DNA from: a virus
Lineage: Duplodnaviria > Heunggongvirae > Uroviricota > Caudoviricetes
Length of the DNA stretch: 12,741 nucleotides
IMG/VR virus record: IMGVR_UViG_2619619129_000002
Strand: one strand, 5' to 3'
The position numbers and the translations under genes are program-made. Position 1 is the stretch's first letter. Every line of letters begins with the position of its first letter. Below are positions 2,579-12,513 of this stretch, piece by piece. The notes beneath the pieces are model-generated. The model was not told the DNA's origin and searched no databases. It was given only the letters and a program-made list of their open reading frames with translations.

Positions 2579-3127
2579 TCACTCTCCTTTGATGCAAATG
2601 CCAGCGTCAGACATCATATGCAGATACTCACCTGCATCCTGAACCCATTGACCTCCAACCCCGTAATAGCGATGCGTAGTGATGTCGATAGTTACTAACG
2701 GGTCTTGTTCGATTAACTGCCGCAGAAACTCTTCCAGGTCACCAGTGCAGTGCTTGATAACAGGAGTCTTCCCAGGATGGCGAACAACAAGAAACTGGTT
2801 TCCGTCTTCACGGACTTCGTTGCTTTCCAGTTTAGCAATACGCTTACTCCCATCCGAGATAACACCTTCGTAATACTCACGCTGCTCGTTGAGTTTTGAT
2901 TTTGCTGTTTCAAGCTCAACACGCAGTTTCCCTACTGTTAGCGCAATATCCTCGTTCTCCTGGTCGCGGCGTTTGATGTATTGCTGGTTTCTTTCCCGTT
3001 CATCCAGCAGTTCCAGCACAATCGATGGTGTTACCAATTCATGGAAAAGGTCTGCGTCAAATCCCCAGTCGTCATGCATTGCCTGCTCTGCCGCTTCACG
3101 CAGTGCCTGAGAGTTAATTTCGCTCAC
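2579..3127 (-). CDS. ea22: Lambda Ea22-like early protein (182 aa)
   Basis: The 549-nt ORF at the position of lambda ea22; translation MSEINSQALREAAEQAMHDDWGFDADLFHELVTPSIV... recognised as Ea22. Confidence 0.85.
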   Translation of the reverse strand: MSEINSQALREAAEQAMHDDWGFDADLFHELVTPSIVLELLDERERNQQYIKRRDQENEDIALTVGKLRVELETAKSKLNEQREYYEGVISDGSKRIAKLESNEVREDGNQFLVVRHPGKTPVIKHCTGDLEEFLRQLIEQDPLVTIDITTHRYYGVGGQWVQDAGEYLHMMSDAGICIKGE

Positions 3128-3345
3128 TTCGAACCTCTCTGTTTACTGATAAGTTCCAGATCCTCCTGGCAACTTGCACAAGTCCGACAACCCTGAACGA
3201 CCAGGCGTCTTCGTTCATCTATCGGATCGCCACACTCACAACAATGAGTGGCAGATATAGCCTGGTGGTTCAGGCGGCGCATTTTTATTGCTGTGTTGCG
3301 CTGTAATTCTTCAATTTCTGATGCTGAATCAATGATGTCTGCCAT
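3124..3345 (-). CDS. TraR/DksA-family C4 zinc-finger protein (lambda Orf73-like, 73 aa)
   Basis: Two CxxC pairs (CCECGDP ... CRTCASC) in a 73-aa protein, typical of TraR-like RNAP-binding proteins. Its stop overlaps the ea22 start. Confidence 0.8.
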   Translation of the reverse strand: MADIIDSASEIEELQRNTAIKMRRLNHQAISATHCCECGDPIDERRRLVVQGCRTCASCQEDLELISKQRGSK

Positions 3346-7215: not shown

Positions 7216-7905
7216 TTAACCATGCTTCCTGTACGTCTGCGGCATGCTTCCAATGACCTTACCGAATATGAACACCCGGTTCATCTCGTCTTTCTCGATC
7301 GGGTCCCACGGCGAGTAGCTCTTGTTATCAGAGATAACCAGCAGCTTATCCTTCATCATTTGAAGACGTTTTACATGGGCAGTGTCGTCGTACAGAAACG
7401 CATAGATGCCATCACCGTCGAAAGATTTAACAGTGATATCAACGAACAGCAGGTCACCTGGTTCGATCGTCCCTGACATGCTGTCACCTCGCACGTTAAT
7501 GATGCGGATATTTTCCGCCTTCCTGCCATCGAACATGTGACGAGCATCGTCAAACGAGTACTCAACCGAGCGTAGAACTTCTACAAACTCACGGTTGATT
7601 ACACCTGGCCCGGCACTGACTTCTATATCAAGAACGTCAATTTTGAAGTATTTGGAATGGCTGACAGTTGATTGTATTGGTTGCACTGTACTGTCTGACA
7701 TATTTCCAACGCCAGAAGATAACCATTCTGCGCGCACACCCAAAGCGTTCGCGATCTCCACGATTTTAGTTGTTTGGTTAGCTTTCCCTGTTTCGATTTT
7801 CTGAATAGCAGCCTGGCTAACCCCGACCAAATCCCCAAGCGCCTTTTGTGTAAGGCCTCGCGCTAATCTGGCTTCTTTAAGTCTTTCTGAGAGTGTTGTT
7901 TTCAT
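7216..7905 (-). CDS. CI-like phage repressor (229 aa): N-terminal XRE-type HTH, C-terminal S24 LexA-like autopeptidase
   Basis: HTH segment LTQKALGDLVGVSQAAIQKIETGK; candidate Ala-Gly cleavage site in VSAGPG; S24 catalytic motifs GDSM (Ser) and HVKRL (Lys). Divergently transcribed from the cro-like gene. Not lambda cI by sequence. Confidence 0.9.
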   Translation of the reverse strand: MKTTLSERLKEARLARGLTQKALGDLVGVSQAAIQKIETGKANQTTKIVEIANALGVRAEWLSSGVGNMSDSTVQPIQSTVSHSKYFKIDVLDIEVSAGPGVINREFVEVLRSVEYSFDDARHMFDGRKAENIRIINVRGDSMSGTIEPGDLLFVDITVKSFDGDGIYAFLYDDTAHVKRLQMMKDKLLVISDNKSYSPWDPIEKDEMNRVFIFGKVIGSMPQTYRKHG

Positions 7906-8009: not shown

Positions 8010-8240
8010 ATGAACCCAGCAATCAAAACAGCGATCAATATCGTTGGTTCACAAAAGAAACTAGGCGATGCCTGCGAAGTTTCACAGCAGGCCGTCTATA
8101 AGTGGCTTCACAACAAAGCAAAGGTATCCCCTGAACATGTCGGCAGCATTGTTACGGCTACTGGTGGAGTTGTGAAGGCATACCAGATTCGCCCGGATCT
8201 TCCGAAGTTGTTTCCACACACCGAAAAGAACGCAGCTTAA
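8010..8240 (+). CDS. Cro-like small HTH regulator (76 aa), YdaS-type
   Basis: GGAGG Shine-Dalgarno 6 nt upstream of the ATG. First gene rightward from pR. Small protein with an HTH-like segment QKKLGDACEVSQQAVYKWL. Confidence 0.85.
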   Translation: MNPAIKTAINIVGSQKKLGDACEVSQQAVYKWLHNKAKVSPEHVGSIVTATGGVVKAYQIRPDLPKLFPHTEKNAA

Positions 8241-8309: not shown

Positions 8310-8849
8310 ATGCAACCACTTACATACCAACAGACTAGCGGATTTATTCCGACTGCGGTGATAAATCGTTCTCAAACAAAACAAGCTCCAGGCCACGAAA
8401 AAATCCGTGATGCCGTCCGCGCCTGGTCGGCTGTAGATAATCAGGATGTCGTTGCCGCACTCATTGTGAATGAGTATCGGGAGCAGGGCGACGGCACCAT
8501 CGATTTCCCTGATGATGTCAGCCGTGCACGCCAGAAGCTGTTCCGCTTCCTCGATAACAAATTCGATTCTGAAAAATACCGAAATAACGTGCGTGAACTG
8601 ACCCCGGCAATTCTGGCGGTACTACCGCTGGAATATCGCGGTTACCTGGTTGAGCAGGATAGCTTCATGACTCGGTTGGCTGAAATGGAAAAGGAACTCA
8701 GTGAGGCAAAACAGGCTGTCATTCTCAACGCACCACGCCACCAGAAACTGAAGGAAATGAGTGAAGGTATTGTGTCGATGTTTCGTGTGGACCCGGATCT
8801 GGCTGGTCCATTAATGGCGATGGTGACCACCATGCTGGGGGCAATATGA
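8310..8849 (+). CDS. YdaT-like protein (179 aa) in the cII position
   Basis: AAGGAG Shine-Dalgarno upstream. Occupies the slot between cro and O. Resemblance to the Rac YdaT family is from recall of domain character, not verified. Confidence 0.7.
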   Translation: MQPLTYQQTSGFIPTAVINRSQTKQAPGHEKIRDAVRAWSAVDNQDVVAALIVNEYREQGDGTIDFPDDVSRARQKLFRFLDNKFDSEKYRNNVRELTPAILAVLPLEYRGYLVEQDSFMTRLAEMEKELSEAKQAVILNAPRHQKLKEMSEGIVSMFRVDPDLAGPLMAMVTTMLGAI

Positions 8850-8935
8850 CAGGTTCAGAAATGGCGAAAGTCGGTCTGCGGGAACAGAACCGACTTTCAG
8901 GTGCAAATCGTAACACACTCATTGCGGGAGGAATT

Positions 8936-9865
8936 ATGGCAAACACTGCTGAGATATTCAATTTTCCAGTGCCGGATGCGGCACAAAAGGAGCCGCGCGT
9001 GGCAGATCTCGATGATGGTTATACGCGCATTGCAAATGAGTTGCTGGAAGCTGTGATGCTGGCCGGATTAACACAGCACCAGCTTCTGGTCTTCCTGGCT
9101 GTCATGCGCAAAACATATGGCTTTAATAAAAAACTGGATTGGGTGAGCAACGAGCAACTTTCCGAGTTGACCGGGATATTGCCGCACAAGTGTTCTGCTG
9201 CAAAAAGTGTTCTGGTAAAGCGTGGGATTTTTATTCAGAGCGGGCGGAATATCGGCATTAATAATGTGGTCAGTGAATGGTCAACATTACCCGAATCAGG
9301 TAAGAAAAATAAAGTTTACCTGAAAGAGGTAAATTTACCTGAATCAGGTAAGAAAAGTTTACCCAAATCAGGTAAAGGCACTTACCCGAATCAGGTAAAC
9401 ACAAAAGACAAACTAACAAAAGACAATATAAAACCTTATTCGTCCGAGAATTCTGGCGAATACTCTGACCAGCCAGAAAACGACCTTCCTGTGGTGAAAC
9501 CGGATGCTGCGATTCAGAGCGGCAGCAAGTGGGGGACAGCAGAAGACCTGACCGCCGCAGAGTGGATGTTTGACATGGTGAAGACCATCGCGCCATCAGC
9601 CAGAAAACCGAATTTTGCAGGGTGGGCCAACGACATCCGCCTGATGCGTGAGCGTGACGGGCGTAACCATCGCGACATGTGCGTTCTGTTCCGCTGGGCC
9701 TGCCAGGACAACTTTTGGTCTGGTAACGTGCTGAGCCCGGCCAAACTTCGCGACAAATGGACCCAACTCGAAATCAACCGTAACAAACAACAGGCTGGCG
9801 TGACAGCCGGAAAACCAAAACTCGACCTGACAAACACAGACTGGATTTACGGGGTGGATCTATGA
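8936..9865 (+). CDS. O: Replication initiator O (309 aa), chimeric: non-lambda N-terminal domain, lambda-identical C-terminal domain
   Basis: Start placed at ATG 8936 (GGGAGG Shine-Dalgarno 6 nt upstream; MANTAEIFNF aligns with lambda O MTNTAKILNF). The C-terminal roughly 120 aa (ENDLPVVKPDAAIQSGSKWGTAEDLTAAEWMFDMVKTIAPSARKPNFAGWANDIR...) match lambda O from memory. The track ORF extends upstream to 8846. Confidence 0.9.
   Translation: MANTAEIFNFPVPDAAQKEPRVADLDDGYTRIANELLEAVMLAGLTQHQLLVFLAVMRKTYGFNKKLDWVSNEQLSELTGILPHKCSAAKSVLVKRGIFIQSGRNIGINNVVSEWSTLPESGKKNKVYLKEVNLPESGKKSLPKSGKGTYPNQVNTKDKLTKDNIKPYSSENSGEYSDQPENDLPVVKPDAAIQSGSKWGTAEDLTAAEWMFDMVKTIAPSARKPNFAGWANDIRLMRERDGRNHRDMCVLFRWACQDNFWSGNVLSPAKLRDKWTQLEINRNKQQAGVTAGKPKLDLTNTDWIYGVDL
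9287..9435. repeat. ori: Replication origin inside O: five 18-bp iterons (starts 9287, 9316, 9335, 9359, 9382) plus an AT-rich tract (9400-9435)
   Basis: Iteron consensus TTACC(C/T)GAA(T/A)(C/G)AGGTAA(G/A), each an inverted repeat (for example TACCTGA-A-TCAGGTA), followed by cacaaaagacaaactaacaaaagacaatataaaacc. Same architecture as lambda ori but a different iteron sequence. Confidence 0.8.
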
Positions 9866-10563
9866 AAAACATCGCCGCACAGATGATTAACTTTGACCGT
9901 GAGCAGATGCGTCGGATCGCCAACAATATGCCGGAACAGTACGACGAAAAGCCGCAGGTACAGCAGGTAGCGCAGATCATCAACGGTGTGTTCAGCCAGT
10001 TACTGGCAACTTTCCCGGCGAGCCTGGCTAACCGTGACCAGAACGAACTGAACGAAATCCGCCGCCAGTGGGTTCTGGCTTTCCGGGAAAACGGGATCAC
10101 CACAATGGAACAGGTTAACGCAGGAATGCGCGTAGCCCGTCGGCAGAATCGACCATTTCTGCCATCACCCGGGCAGTTTGTTGCATGGTGCCGGGAAGAA
10201 GCATCCGTTATCGCCGGACTGCCAAACGTCAGCGAGCTGGTTGATATGGTTTACGAGTATTGCCGGAAGCGAGGCCTGTATCCGGATGCGGAGTCTTATC
10301 CGTGGAAATCAAACGCGCACTACTGGCTGGTTACCAACCTGTATCAGAACATGCGGGCCAATGCGCTTACTGATGCGGAATTACGGCGTAAAGCTGCCGA
10401 TGAGCTGACCTGTATGACCGCGCGAATTAACCGTGGTGAGGCGATACCTGAACCAGTAAAACAACTTCCTGTCATGGGCGGTAGGCCTCTAAATCGTGCA
10501 CAGGCTCTGGCGAAGATCGCAGAAATCAAAGCGAAGTTCGGACTGAAAGGAGCAACTATATGA
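9862..10563 (+). CDS. P: Replication protein P (helicase loader, 233 aa), lambda-like
   Basis: Translation MKNIAAQMINFDREQMRRIANNMPEQYDEKPQVQQVAQIINGVFSQLLATFPASLANRDQNELNEIRRQW... recognised as lambda P. ATGA start/stop overlap with O. Confidence 0.95.
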   Translation: MKNIAAQMINFDREQMRRIANNMPEQYDEKPQVQQVAQIINGVFSQLLATFPASLANRDQNELNEIRRQWVLAFRENGITTMEQVNAGMRVARRQNRPFLPSPGQFVAWCREEASVIAGLPNVSELVDMVYEYCRKRGLYPDAESYPWKSNAHYWLVTNLYQNMRANALTDAELRRKAADELTCMTARINRGEAIPEPVKQLPVMGGRPLNRAQALAKIAEIKAKFGLKGATI

Positions 10564-10733
10564 CGGGCAAAGAGGCAATTATTCATTATCTGGAGACGCA
10601 CAAGAGCTTCTGTGCGCCGGACGTTGCTGCGACAACAGGTGTGACATTAACCAGCATAAATCAGGCTGCGGCAAAAATGGCGCGGGCAGGAATCCTGGTC
10701 ATTGATGGTAAGGTCTGGCGAACGTTTGTTTAA
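10560..10733 (+). pseudogene. ren: ren, truncated (57 codons versus 96 in lambda)
   Basis: Translation MTGKEAIIHYLETHKSFCAPDVAATTGVTLTSINQAAAKMARAGILVIDGKVWRTFV* matches the lambda Ren N-terminus, then stops where non-lambda AT-rich DNA begins. It is below the length cutoff of the ORF track. Confidence 0.7.
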
Positions 10734-10879: not shown

Positions 10880-11374
10880 ATGAGAAAATTTATTTTAGCC
10901 TTTGTCATAAGTGCCTCGTTTACAGCAAATGCTGGTGTAGAGAAGTTAGGGCCGTGGATAACAAAGTCTGAGATAAATAAAATGACTGACCAGACTGACT
11001 TTGTGGCTCTTAATTTATCACCAGATTCATATAACAAAGCAGGTACTGATCGTGCAACTTCACTGGTGTTGCGTTGTAGTGATAACAAAACAGATGCCTA
11101 TTTATCATTCAATGATTATATGGGTTCGGACAACCCAAGAATTACAGTGCGGTTAGATGGCGGAAAGCCGGTCAAGAGTGTTTGGGGAGGTGGGGAAGGC
11201 GGTGATTCTGCATTTGCTCCACAACCAATACAATTTATAAAGACCTTGGCTAAGCATAAAAAAGCTATTTTTGGGTTTGAACCTTATGGATCAACTATGC
11301 AAGTAGTTGAGTTTGACTTGTCTGAGATTGATAAGGTTGTGGAAAAAATTTCACAGTCTTGCAATTGGAAATGA
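10880..11374 (+). CDS. Secreted or periplasmic protein of unknown function (164 aa) with a cleavable signal peptide
   Basis: AAGGAG Shine-Dalgarno 8 nt upstream. N-terminus MRKFILAFVISASFTANA with an A-x-A signal peptidase I site before Gly19. Two Cys residues (C66, C161). AT-rich codon usage by eye. Candidate promoter upstream (GATAAT -10-like at about 10842) and terminator downstream. Confidence 0.75.
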   Translation: MRKFILAFVISASFTANAGVEKLGPWITKSEINKMTDQTDFVALNLSPDSYNKAGTDRATSLVLRCSDNKTDAYLSFNDYMGSDNPRITVRLDGGKPVKSVWGGGEGGDSAFAPQPIQFIKTLAKHKKAIFGFEPYGSTMQVVEFDLSEIDKVVEKISQSCNWK

Positions 11375-12009: not shown

Positions 12010-12513
12010 TTATTGATAGTGTTTTATGTTCAGATAATGCCCGATGATTTTGTCATGCAGCTCCACCGATTTTGAGAACGACAGCGACTTCCGTCCCAGC
12101 CGTGCCAGGTGCTGCCTCAGATTCAGGTTATGCCGCTCAATTCGCTGCGTATATCGCTTGCTGATTACGTGCAGCTTTCCCTTCAGGCGGGATTCATACA
12201 GTGGCCAGCCATCCGTCATCCATATCACCACGTCAAAGGGTGACAGCAGGCTCATAAGACGCCCCAGCGTCGCCATAGTGCGTTCACCGAATACGTGCGC
12301 AACAACCGTCTTCCGGAGCCTGTCATACGCGTAAAACAGCCAGCGCTGGCGCGATTTAGCCCCGACATAGCCCCACTGTTCGTCCATTTCCGCGCAGACG
12401 ATGACGTCACTGCCCGGCTGTATGCGCGAGGTTACCGACTGCGGCCTGAGTTTTTTAAGTGACGTAAAATCGTGTTGAGGCCAACGCCCATAATGCGGGC
12501 AGTTGCCCGGCAT
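12010..12513 (-). CDS. insB: IS1 InsB (transposase C-terminal frame, 167 aa)
   Basis: Translation [64 protein letters not shown]... matches IS1 InsB. Confidence 0.9.

Follow-up and report, generated by a model that had tools for sequence, protein, structure and literature searches.

A replication module with a two-domain O and its own origin

The analyzed region is, with high confidence, a replication module of a lambdoid prophage, consisting of a two-domain O initiator translated from 8936, iterons of its own and a P of the lambda type, and its O gene is a standing allele (positions are those of the window, i.e., the whole stretch of 12,741 nucleotides that was analyzed; Table 1). The anatomy, the homologies, the co-variation of iterons with N-domains and the prevalence of the allele are shown here; the binding, the unwinding, the use of P and DnaB, and an antisense RNA are inferred. 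The N-terminal part of O matched the Pfam profile over its full length (E 7.5e-34; 116.6 bits, cut-off 28.7), and what the initial annotation had called a new iteron-binding domain is an ordinary Phage_rep_O domain. Its candidate recognition helix reads LPHKCSAAKS; a PDB sequence search with O returned no chain at E <= 1. The Pfam match and the iterons within the coding sequence support the view, already put forward in that annotation, that O is a lambda-type initiator with an intragenic origin.

Table 1. Features of the replication region (window positions)
Feature	Position	Strand	Sequence	Remarks
ydaT	8310..8849	+		phi80-type CII analogue upstream of O; Pfam YdaT_toxin, E 4.3e-30
In-frame upstream open stretch ("30-aa extension")	8846..8935	+		between ydaT and O
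Candidate pO-like promoter and oop/M3-like antisense RNA	8859..8961	-		promoter-like site, hairpin
O-type replication initiator gene	8936..9865	+		309 aa when read from 8936, the preferred start
Phage_rep_O (PF04492) origin-binding domain	8996..9280	+		aa 21-115
Iteron 1	9287..9303		TTACCCGAATCAGGTAA	extra copy relative to the four of lambda; within the 10-aa insertion
Iteron 2	9316..9332		TTACCTGAAAGAGGTAA	2 mismatches, degenerate centre; aligns with lambda ITN1
Iteron 3	9335..9351		TTACCTGAATCAGGTAA	perfect 17-bp palindrome; aligns with lambda ITN2
Iteron 4	9359..9375		TTACCCAAATCAGGTAA	aligns with lambda ITN3
Iteron 5	9382..9398		TTACCCGAATCAGGTAA	aligns with lambda ITN4
AT-rich tract, presumed unwinding element	9399..9438		ACACAAAAGACAAACTAACAAAAGACAATATAAAA	GC 0.25, strong A/T strand skew
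C-terminal half of O, lambda-type P-interaction domain	9440..9865	+		402/426 nt identical to lambda
P (helicase loader), lambda-type	9862..10563	+		Pfam Phage_lambda_P (PF06992), E 1.1e-61

The whole window was scanned for the pattern TTACCYRAATCAGGTAA with up to two mismatches allowed. Five matches were found, all inside O, against a chance expectation of 0.01, and none elsewhere in the window. The repeats had been described as five palindromic iterons of 18 bp; they are indeed five, palindromic and real, but the core unit is a 17-bp palindrome, which in the repeat at 9335-9351 consists of two arms of 8 bp flanking a single central base. Their start-to-start spacings are 29, 19, 24 and 23, the last three of which match the 20, 24 and 23 of lambda, and the degenerate centre of iteron 2 is kept likewise in relatives from Enterobacter, Kluyvera and Pseudocitrobacter. 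The AT-rich tract that had been noted after the iterons is present; it codes for a TKDxxTKD linker, has a homologue in lambda, and is conserved in lambda and in Enterobacter, Klebsiella and Xenorhabdus loci. No paper with the iteron strings in print turned up in a full-text literature search, and we found no published experiments on this O allele.

We propose that the N-terminal domain, as dimers, would bind the five iterons (9287-9398) in its own coding sequence, on the model of lambda O on its four iterons; this binding is predicted from homology and from the co-variation of iterons with N-domains. The iteron-bound array of O would destabilize the adjacent AT-rich tract, and the lambda-type C-terminal half would recruit the lambda-type P together with the host DnaB that it carries. 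In its specificity (TTACC-N7-GGTAA) the origin is unlike that of lambda or phi80, and the helicase-recruitment half is of the lambda type. A non-lambda iteron specificity joined to a P-binding half and a P of the lambda type had been predicted in the initial annotation and is the natural reading of the sequence. In this prophage copy ren is truncated and an IS1 lies nearby, so that this copy of O and its origin may no longer fire.

Mosaic structure compared with lambda and other phages

The module shares with lambda the order CII analogue, spacer with pO (a candidate in the window), O, P and ren, a PF04492 N-domain, iterons inside O in the same register, and the overlap of the O stop with the P start (ATGA, at 9862-9865 in the window). 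The N-terminal part of O is only distantly related to that of lambda (261/463 nt and 68/155 aa identical, about 44% at the amino acid level), whereas from about 9398 onward 434 of 467 nucleotides are identical. In the C-domain 145 of 154 residues are those of lambda (94.4% nucleotide identity in the C half, with 24 mismatches in 9440-9865), as are 226 of 233 residues in P (679/702 nt, 96.7%). These parts are lambda-like but not, as had been claimed, lambda-identical, and the lambda-like part of O is its C-terminal half, not a third. Homology to lambda begins at 9398, and homology to relatives of the N type stops near 9435; from these alignments the crossover is placed at 9398-9435, in the AT-rich tract, a stretch conserved in both lambda and the aligned relatives. 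A mosaic boundary against lambda at the domain boundary, as initially proposed, is thus seen as a step in identity at about 9398-9440. The window further differs from lambda in the arms of its iterons (TTACC/GGTAA vs. TCCCTC/GAGGGA, the lambda repeat being TCCCTC-N6-GAGGGA), which fall outside the ori-lambda specificity class, in having five iterons, with 10 extra amino acids, where lambda has four, and in its upstream regulator, which is a YdaT/phi80-type CII and not lambda CII. A CII-like role of YdaT has been described (PMC8630535), and the ydaT product is identical to phi80 CII at 119 of 180 residues (66%).

Phi80 gene 15/gene 14 resembles the module in the long YdaT-like CII, the antisense oop homologue (M3 RNA) in the spacer before the initiator gene, the P-like gene 14, and the gp15 sites, four of which are annotated within gene 15. 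However, the phi80 iterons are TTCCCGAAAACGGGAA, and the O and iterons of the window lie outside the ori-phi80 specificity class, which has a gp15-like N-domain. Because both halves of gp15 have diverged from O, phi80 is the donor of neither module and was rejected. Phages 21 (OL657228) and 434 were also rejected as donors, since they carry lambda-type O and iterons. Stx phages 933W and P27 have an O with six iterons and a linker that is 13 aa longer (PMC7466680; 10 aa in the window); they share with the window a lambda-type O, extra iterons and a longer linker, but their O and iterons are close variants of the lambda specificity and those of the window belong to a different class.

Named coliphages, including Perceval (OV696612), 4A7 (NC_049946), Lambda_4C10, 1W, 3W, PhiR26_1 and others, carry the same O allele in the same ydaT-O-P-ren context. 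Identity is 96-97.5% over the whole gene and 97.7-99.8% over the N-terminal part and iterons, but the C half and P differ from those of the window by about 4-6% of nucleotides. In the Perceval record, the one phage record inspected, and in the record of the E. coli E2 prophage, neither iterons nor an origin are annotated, and O starts at the upstream ATG.

Iteron classes and exchange of modules

The type of iteron follows the N-domain: we distinguished TTACC..GGTAA, TTAGC..GCTAA, lambda TCCCTC..GAGGGA and phi80 TTCCCG..CGGGAA. In the TTACC class (the window and 12 loci), 67 of 68 iterons have C4/G14, whereas in the TTAGC class, which is about 45% identical, 31 of 35 iterons (8 loci) have G4/C14, a symmetric switch that preserves the palindrome. 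The helix LPHKCSAAKS is invariant in five aligned N-domains of the TTACC class and differs in the TTAGC (HHTHVCKAKN), lambda and phi80 classes. One N class was found with C-domains that cluster by the downstream partner gene, the partners being lambda P, a DnaC/IstB-like AAA+ protein, DUF6475 and a Toprim-DnaB primase-helicase; the C-domain of the window groups with those of lambda and of further O proteins that precede a P gene. Two loci are exceptions: L018 has a P-type partner and a C-domain in the DnaC group, and in L020, which has a DnaC-type partner, the C-domain stands alone. A further locus (L022) has TTAGC iterons, yet carries the C-domain and partner of the TTACC loci L014 and L015. 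As judged from these comparisons, the type of C-domain mostly goes with that of the downstream helicase partner, and the N-domain with its iterons and the C-domain with its partner are separately exchangeable modules.

It is possible, though we hold this only tentatively, that a TTACC-N7-GGTAA origin together with an N-domain bearing the LPHKCSAAKS helix forms an experimentally uncharacterized specificity class distinct from those of lambda, phi80 and possibly 82. In phage 82 there are five repeats, and the C terminus of O resembles that of lambda. If such a class exists, its neighbour would be one symmetric base-pair switch (C4/G14 to G4/C14) and a change of recognition helix away, which would provide a natural, readable code for the recognition of iterons by O and mutually orthogonal replicons that depend on lambda P. 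For builders of orthogonal lambda-type replicons, the pairing of iteron class with candidate helix offers specificity determinants that can be tested.

The domain logic behind this modularity is already known from hybrid work that is decades old: lambda-82 and lambda-phi80 hybrids led to the deduction that O binds DNA through its N end and P through its C end (PMC6022878, crediting Furth & Yates 1978 and Wickner & Zahn 1986). According to Furth & Yates 1978, as cited in the same paper, O of phage 82 has a type-specific N end and a C end compatible with P. As a discovery, the mosaic O matters little, but it is a clean example of modularity in lambdoid replication genes.

Prevalence of the allele and alternative readings of the locus

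The initial annotation regarded O as a novel chimera, and a single recent recombination event within the gene, particular to this genome and giving rise to a novel hybrid initiator, would produce the sharp step in identity against lambda described above. Together with its iterons, however, O is 96-97.5% identical over the entire gene, without any joint, in 15 deposited isolated phages, and the same pairing of N and C parts occurs in thousands of E. coli genomes and, among the best 80 IMG/VR loci, in every one with a contig long enough to include it. The 24 differences among the 426 nucleotides of the C half are mostly synonymous, which points to long separate descent from lambda and not to a recent transfer. 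A unique recent chimera was therefore rejected, its likelihood being negligible; the modules reassort throughout Enterobacterales prophages, and the implied novelty does not hold. The O gene is 100% identical to that of an IMG/VR contig (L050), its exact 309-aa protein is found on 210 public contigs, and its 90% protein cluster has 7,825 members. The YdaT-O-P block is present in at least 2,168 of 5,426 complete E. coli genomes, and the locus has at least 573 relatives in IMG/VR. The combination of O and origin is a common, already-sequenced standing allele that is fixed in E. coli prophages. The repeats, for their part, could be a coding repeat in the linker between the two domains (LPESGK) that plays no part as initiator sites in the DNA. 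In frame, they encode the peptides LPESGK, LPKSGK and YPNQVN within a segment of low complexity between the domains, and their copy number varies from 4 to 9 in relatives. But every unit is palindromic, a property not required of a peptide repeat, and the units are in register with the experimentally defined iterons of lambda. In the relatives, the palindrome survives the change of specificity from C4/G14 to G4/C14 in another class, and the spacing of 19/20, 24 and 23 is kept from lambda to Xenorhabdus despite the changed sequence. On this conserved spacing and this palindrome-preserving switch, a pure peptide repeat was rejected and keeps a very slight likelihood.

The start of O can also be read in two ways. 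Translation from the ATG at 8846 would be coupled to ydaT and yield a 339-aa O with 30 extra functional residues. The ATGA overlap of this ATG with the ydaT stop, which had been pointed out before, is present at 8846-8849, the upstream frame is open in 82 of 82 close relatives, a gene of 1,020 nt is annotated by PGAP and in the Perceval record, and 291 deposited contigs carry the 339-aa form. Nevertheless, the 13 variable sites of 8846-8935 in the 82 relatives comprise 8 non-synonymous and 5 synonymous ones, distributed 3/5/5 over the codon positions without a third-position bias, whereas in the adjoining 3' end of ydaT the same comparison gave 1 non-synonymous and 8 synonymous sites. This pattern is without coding constraint, and the extension looks non-coding. 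In relatives belonging to other genera, this frame contains stops 1-8 codons ahead of the homologous ATG. The homology shared with lambda, phi80 and Klebsiella phages begins at 8936, lambda O aligning from its Met1, and a strong Shine-Dalgarno sequence (GGAGG) lies 5 nt before this ATG, which is itself within a conserved pO-like -10 element, as is that of lambda. We consider functional translation from 8846 unlikely, in agreement with the preference for 8936 expressed initially. O is most likely translated from 8936, with 8846-8935 as an apparently untranslated spacer; a minor extended isoform of O is possible, given the frame open in all close relatives. Annotations that give this gene, which is very common in E. 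coli prophages, a 339-aa product probably place its start 30 codons too early.

A candidate antisense RNA in the spacer

On the minus strand, a pO-like candidate promoter has a -35 element TTGAAT at 8961-8956 and TG-CATAAT at 8938-8933, overlapping the ATG of O; its -10 hexamer matches that of lambda. A hairpin in the spacer (8894-8870, minus strand) has a folding energy of -24.6 kcal/mol (z -3.4) and a weak T-run; a terminator scan found nothing. No Rfam family reached its gathering score in the whole window, and STnc450 gave a weak sub-threshold match in the spacer (8926-8859). The layout of the spacer is the same as in lambda pO/oop, in the phi80 M3 RNA region and in an Enterobacter locus (L005). 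The 90-nt spacer probably encodes an antisense RNA of the lambda-oop/phi80-M3 type, and what thousands of genomes have annotated as the N terminus of O may instead code for an oop-like sRNA that has escaped annotation.

Results

O is an abundant allele and a mosaic only relative to lambda

The initial annotation described a chimeric O initiator in which a new iteron-binding part is joined to a lambda-identical C-terminal third, followed by a lambda-identical P. Compared with lambda, the N part of O was identical at 261/463 nt and 68/155 aa, the stretch 9399-9865 at 434/467 nt, the O C-domain at 145/154 aa, and P at 679/702 nt and 226/233 aa. "Lambda-identical" was an overstatement given these differences in P and 24 mismatches, mostly synonymous, in 9440-9865, and the lambda-like portion is in fact half of O. 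Within P, 11 mismatches to lambda fall in 38 nt (10386-10423) and the rest of the gene is 97-100% identical; this has the appearance of a minor mosaic patch or of local divergence.

The novelty of O was not borne out. Its N part matches Pfam Phage_rep_O over the full profile length (E 7.5e-34). Fifteen deposited phages, among them PhiR26_1, IdasGreatGrand, Lambda_4C10, 4A7, 1W, 3W and Perceval, have an annotated O that is 96-97.5% identical over the whole gene plus 90 nt upstream, and in these phages the N part and iterons are 97.7-99.8% identical. Of 5,426 complete E. coli genomes, at least 2,168 carried the ydaT-O-P block (at least 80% of the query covered). At least 573 relatives are found in IMG/VR, with an N-domain protein 98-100% identical in the best 80; one of these (L050) matches the window without a difference from ydaS through ren. 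The exact 309-aa protein occurs on 210 public contigs and the exact 339-aa form on 291, and the 90% cluster has 7,825 members. The intragenic joint stands against lambda-type O genes only; no joint is seen against the deposited phage, IMG/VR or E. coli records. As for possible donors, phages 21 and 434 carry a lambda-type O and phi80 O is of a different class from that of the window. A full-text literature search did not find the window iteron string, and no solved structure matched O by sequence. O of the window is an ordinary, abundant and already known allele of a textbook modular system.

Two short contigs with enterobacterial O-gene sequence, one binned as a Candidatus Nanosynbacter MAG (L034, whose 3001-3327 segment is 98% identical to the window C-domain) and one as a Paraclostridium MAG (L027), are almost certainly binning contaminants.

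The iteron class tracks the N-domain class

The repeats reported in O are real: at up to 2 mismatches, TTACCYRAATCAGGTAA matched only the five iterons, whereas 0.01 matches are expected in shuffles. Every iteron is palindromic, and the third is a perfect 8+1+8 palindrome. The start spacings are 29, 19, 24 and 23, compared with 20, 24 and 23 for the four annotated lambda iterons; in the DNA alignment iterons 2-5 are in register with lambda ITN1-4, and iteron 1 falls within 10 aa that lambda O lacks. The 19/20, 24, 23 spacing of the last four iterons was kept throughout the relatives.

We examined 30 N-domain relatives from a scan, taking one genome per species. TTACC-N7-GGTAA was found in all relatives at least 64% identical that retain the iteron part and in Arsenophonus (54%), with 4 to 9 copies in Enterobacter, Pseudocitrobacter, Klebsiella, Kluyvera, Xenorhabdus, Pantoea, Providencia and Arsenophonus. 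TTAGC-N7-GCTAA iterons occur in L022-L029, a group with about 45% N-domain identity, showing that iteron class tracks N-domain class. Positions 4 and 14 of the 17-mer are C/G in 67/68 TTACC-class iterons and G/C in 31/35 TTAGC-class iterons. This switch is symmetric and keeps the palindrome, which argues for a DNA-level constraint by a dimeric reader and against the iterons being a peptide repeat. Lambda iterons read TCCCTC-N6-GAGGGA, and those of phi80 TTCCCGAAAACGGGAA.

The segment that is most likely the recognition helix co-varies with iteron class. It reads LPHKCSAAKS in five aligned TTACC-class members, HHTHVC(K/T)AKN in L024, L026 and L029 and HYTHCSAAKN in L022 of the TTAGC class, PVKRCNEAKL in lambda and SDTHVSDALK in phi80.

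Tandem copies of a 48-nt unit, made up of an iteron, 12 nt, a degenerate iteron and 2 nt, have lengthened the array to 9 iterons in Kluyvera sichuanensis (L009, 3352-3559) and to 7 in Arsenophonus nasoniae (L019, 3412-3569). The window has one such unit ahead of its last three iterons.

The AT-rich tract is the exchange point between modules

Lambda-82 and lambda-phi80 hybrids, together with biochemistry, showed that the N end of O binds DNA and the C end binds P, with a flexible linker between (PMC6022878). The predicted combination of non-lambda origin specificity with a lambda-type P is therefore a reasonable one and corresponds to the classical case. The domain-level reading of the initial annotation, specificity in the N part and P interaction in the C part, was correct. 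As in lambda, O dimers would bind the iterons through the N-domain to form an O-some, the AT-rich tract would then be destabilised, and the C-domain would recruit P-DnaB. Stx phages have extra iterons and also a longer linker (PMC7466680).

The AT-rich tract, ACACAAAAGACAnnnnnACAAAAGAnAA, directly follows the iterons, and also adjoins the last iteron in 4/4 other DNA-aligned loci (lambda, Enterobacter, Klebsiella, Xenorhabdus). It encodes TKDxxTKD/E, a motif present in most TTACC-class O proteins and absent from L023-L031. Homology to N-type relatives spans the tract and ends near 9435, and homology to lambda begins at 9398, placing the exchange point inside a shared element of about 35 bp. 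Three roles coincide here: the element is the presumed unwinding region, it encodes the interdomain linker, and it offers homology for recombination.

The C-domain class tracked the downstream partner gene rather than the N-domain class, with an imperfect fit. The C-domains of the window, lambda, L011 and L013 cluster together and precede a PF06992 P gene. Those of L005-7, L009, L010, L012 and L016 form another cluster, in which the two partners scanned, those of L005 and L010, are DnaC/IstB-like AAA+ proteins; the translations of the remaining partners carry this ATPase motif too. L008 and L017 share a downstream gene (a DUF6475 protein in L017); L014, L015 and L022 precede proteins of about 627 aa (a Toprim + DnaB-like primase-helicase in L014), and L023-L029 proteins of about 450 aa (a DnaB helicase in L023). 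The exceptions were L018, whose C-domain clusters with the DnaC group despite a P-type partner, and L020, whose C-domain stands alone beside a DnaC-type partner. Because L022 joins TTAGC iterons to a C-domain and partner of the kind found in TTACC loci, the N/iteron and C/partner modules reassort. E. coli-type relatives keep the N module at 98-100% identity, and their alleles of the C half of O and of P differ by 4-6%, which points to repeated exchange between lambda-type C/P alleles on the right side of the AT-rich tract. Among the IMG/VR loci compared (L037, L043, L050, L074 vs others), only a few share the C allele of the window.

The upstream extension of O is probably a spacer

In both the PGAP annotation of E. 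coli E2 and the Perceval record, O is given as the 339-aa form from the upstream ATG (L002 3001-4020, L004 9547-10566). The initial annotation preferred ATG 8936, and five lines of evidence agree with it. The alignment of window O to its lambda and phi80 counterparts begins at Met1 (8936), and GGAGG, a strong Shine-Dalgarno sequence, lies 5 nt before this ATG. The stretch 8846-8935 varies at 13 sites among 82 close relatives (8 non-synonymous, 5 synonymous; 3/5/5 over codon positions), against 8 synonymous and 1 non-synonymous in the adjacent ydaT 3' end. In relatives from other genera, an in-frame stop lies 1-8 codons before the homologous ATG. Finally, a promoter-like element on the minus strand encloses ATG 8936. 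It is conserved in phi80, in Enterobacter and, as pO, in lambda, and its candidate -10 overlaps the O ATG exactly as in lambda. A start 30 codons downstream of the annotated ATG is thus favoured by sequence comparison; if correct, the long form is a systematic mis-annotation across thousands of genomes.

Downstream of the promoter-like element is a hairpin followed by UUUCGCCAUUUCU, a weak U-run. Rfam STnc450 aligned to 8926-8859 on the minus strand below threshold (16 bits vs a gathering score of 37), and an oop homologue, M3 RNA, is annotated in the equivalent phi80 spacer. The two records inspected, Perceval and E. coli E2, annotate no RNA at the equivalent of 8859-8961. Together with the start-codon evidence, the promoter-like element, the hairpin and the M3 parallel suggest that the 30-aa extension is most likely a spacer carrying an oop/M3-type antisense RNA gene.

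The window corresponds to a lambdoid prophage early region

Features of the window
Feature	Position	Strand	Remark
int	544-1614	minus	
exo/bet/gam-like block	after int		by position, per annotation of the near-identical E. coli E2 prophage
S24 CI-type repressor	7216-7905	minus	
YdaS/Cro-like gene	8010-8240		
YdaT gene	8310-8849		
Candidate antisense RNA gene	8859-8961	minus	
Hairpin	8894-8870	minus	-24.6 kcal/mol, z -3.4
Promoter-like element	8961-8933	minus	TTGAAT, 17 nt, TG-CATAAT
O	8846 or 8936 to 9865		
Iterons (starts)	9287, 9316, 9335, 9359, 9382		third, 9335-9351
AT-rich tract	9399-9438		40 nt, 25% GC
P	9862-10563		
ren, truncated	10560-10733		57 aa vs 96 aa in lambda ren
VasI/TagO-like ORF	10880-11374		after ren
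IS1 transposase	12010-12513	minus	

In this immunity type YdaS is the analogue of Cro and YdaT that of CII (PMC8630535), and the "toxin YdaT" of the window is identical to the phi80 "CII decision making protein" at 119/180 aa (66%). These two genes and the S24 repressor make up an immunity region of phi80/CP-933P type, which is linked to a P module of lambda type. After the truncated ren, the VasI/TagO-like ORF and the IS1 transposase occupy the position expected for the nin region.
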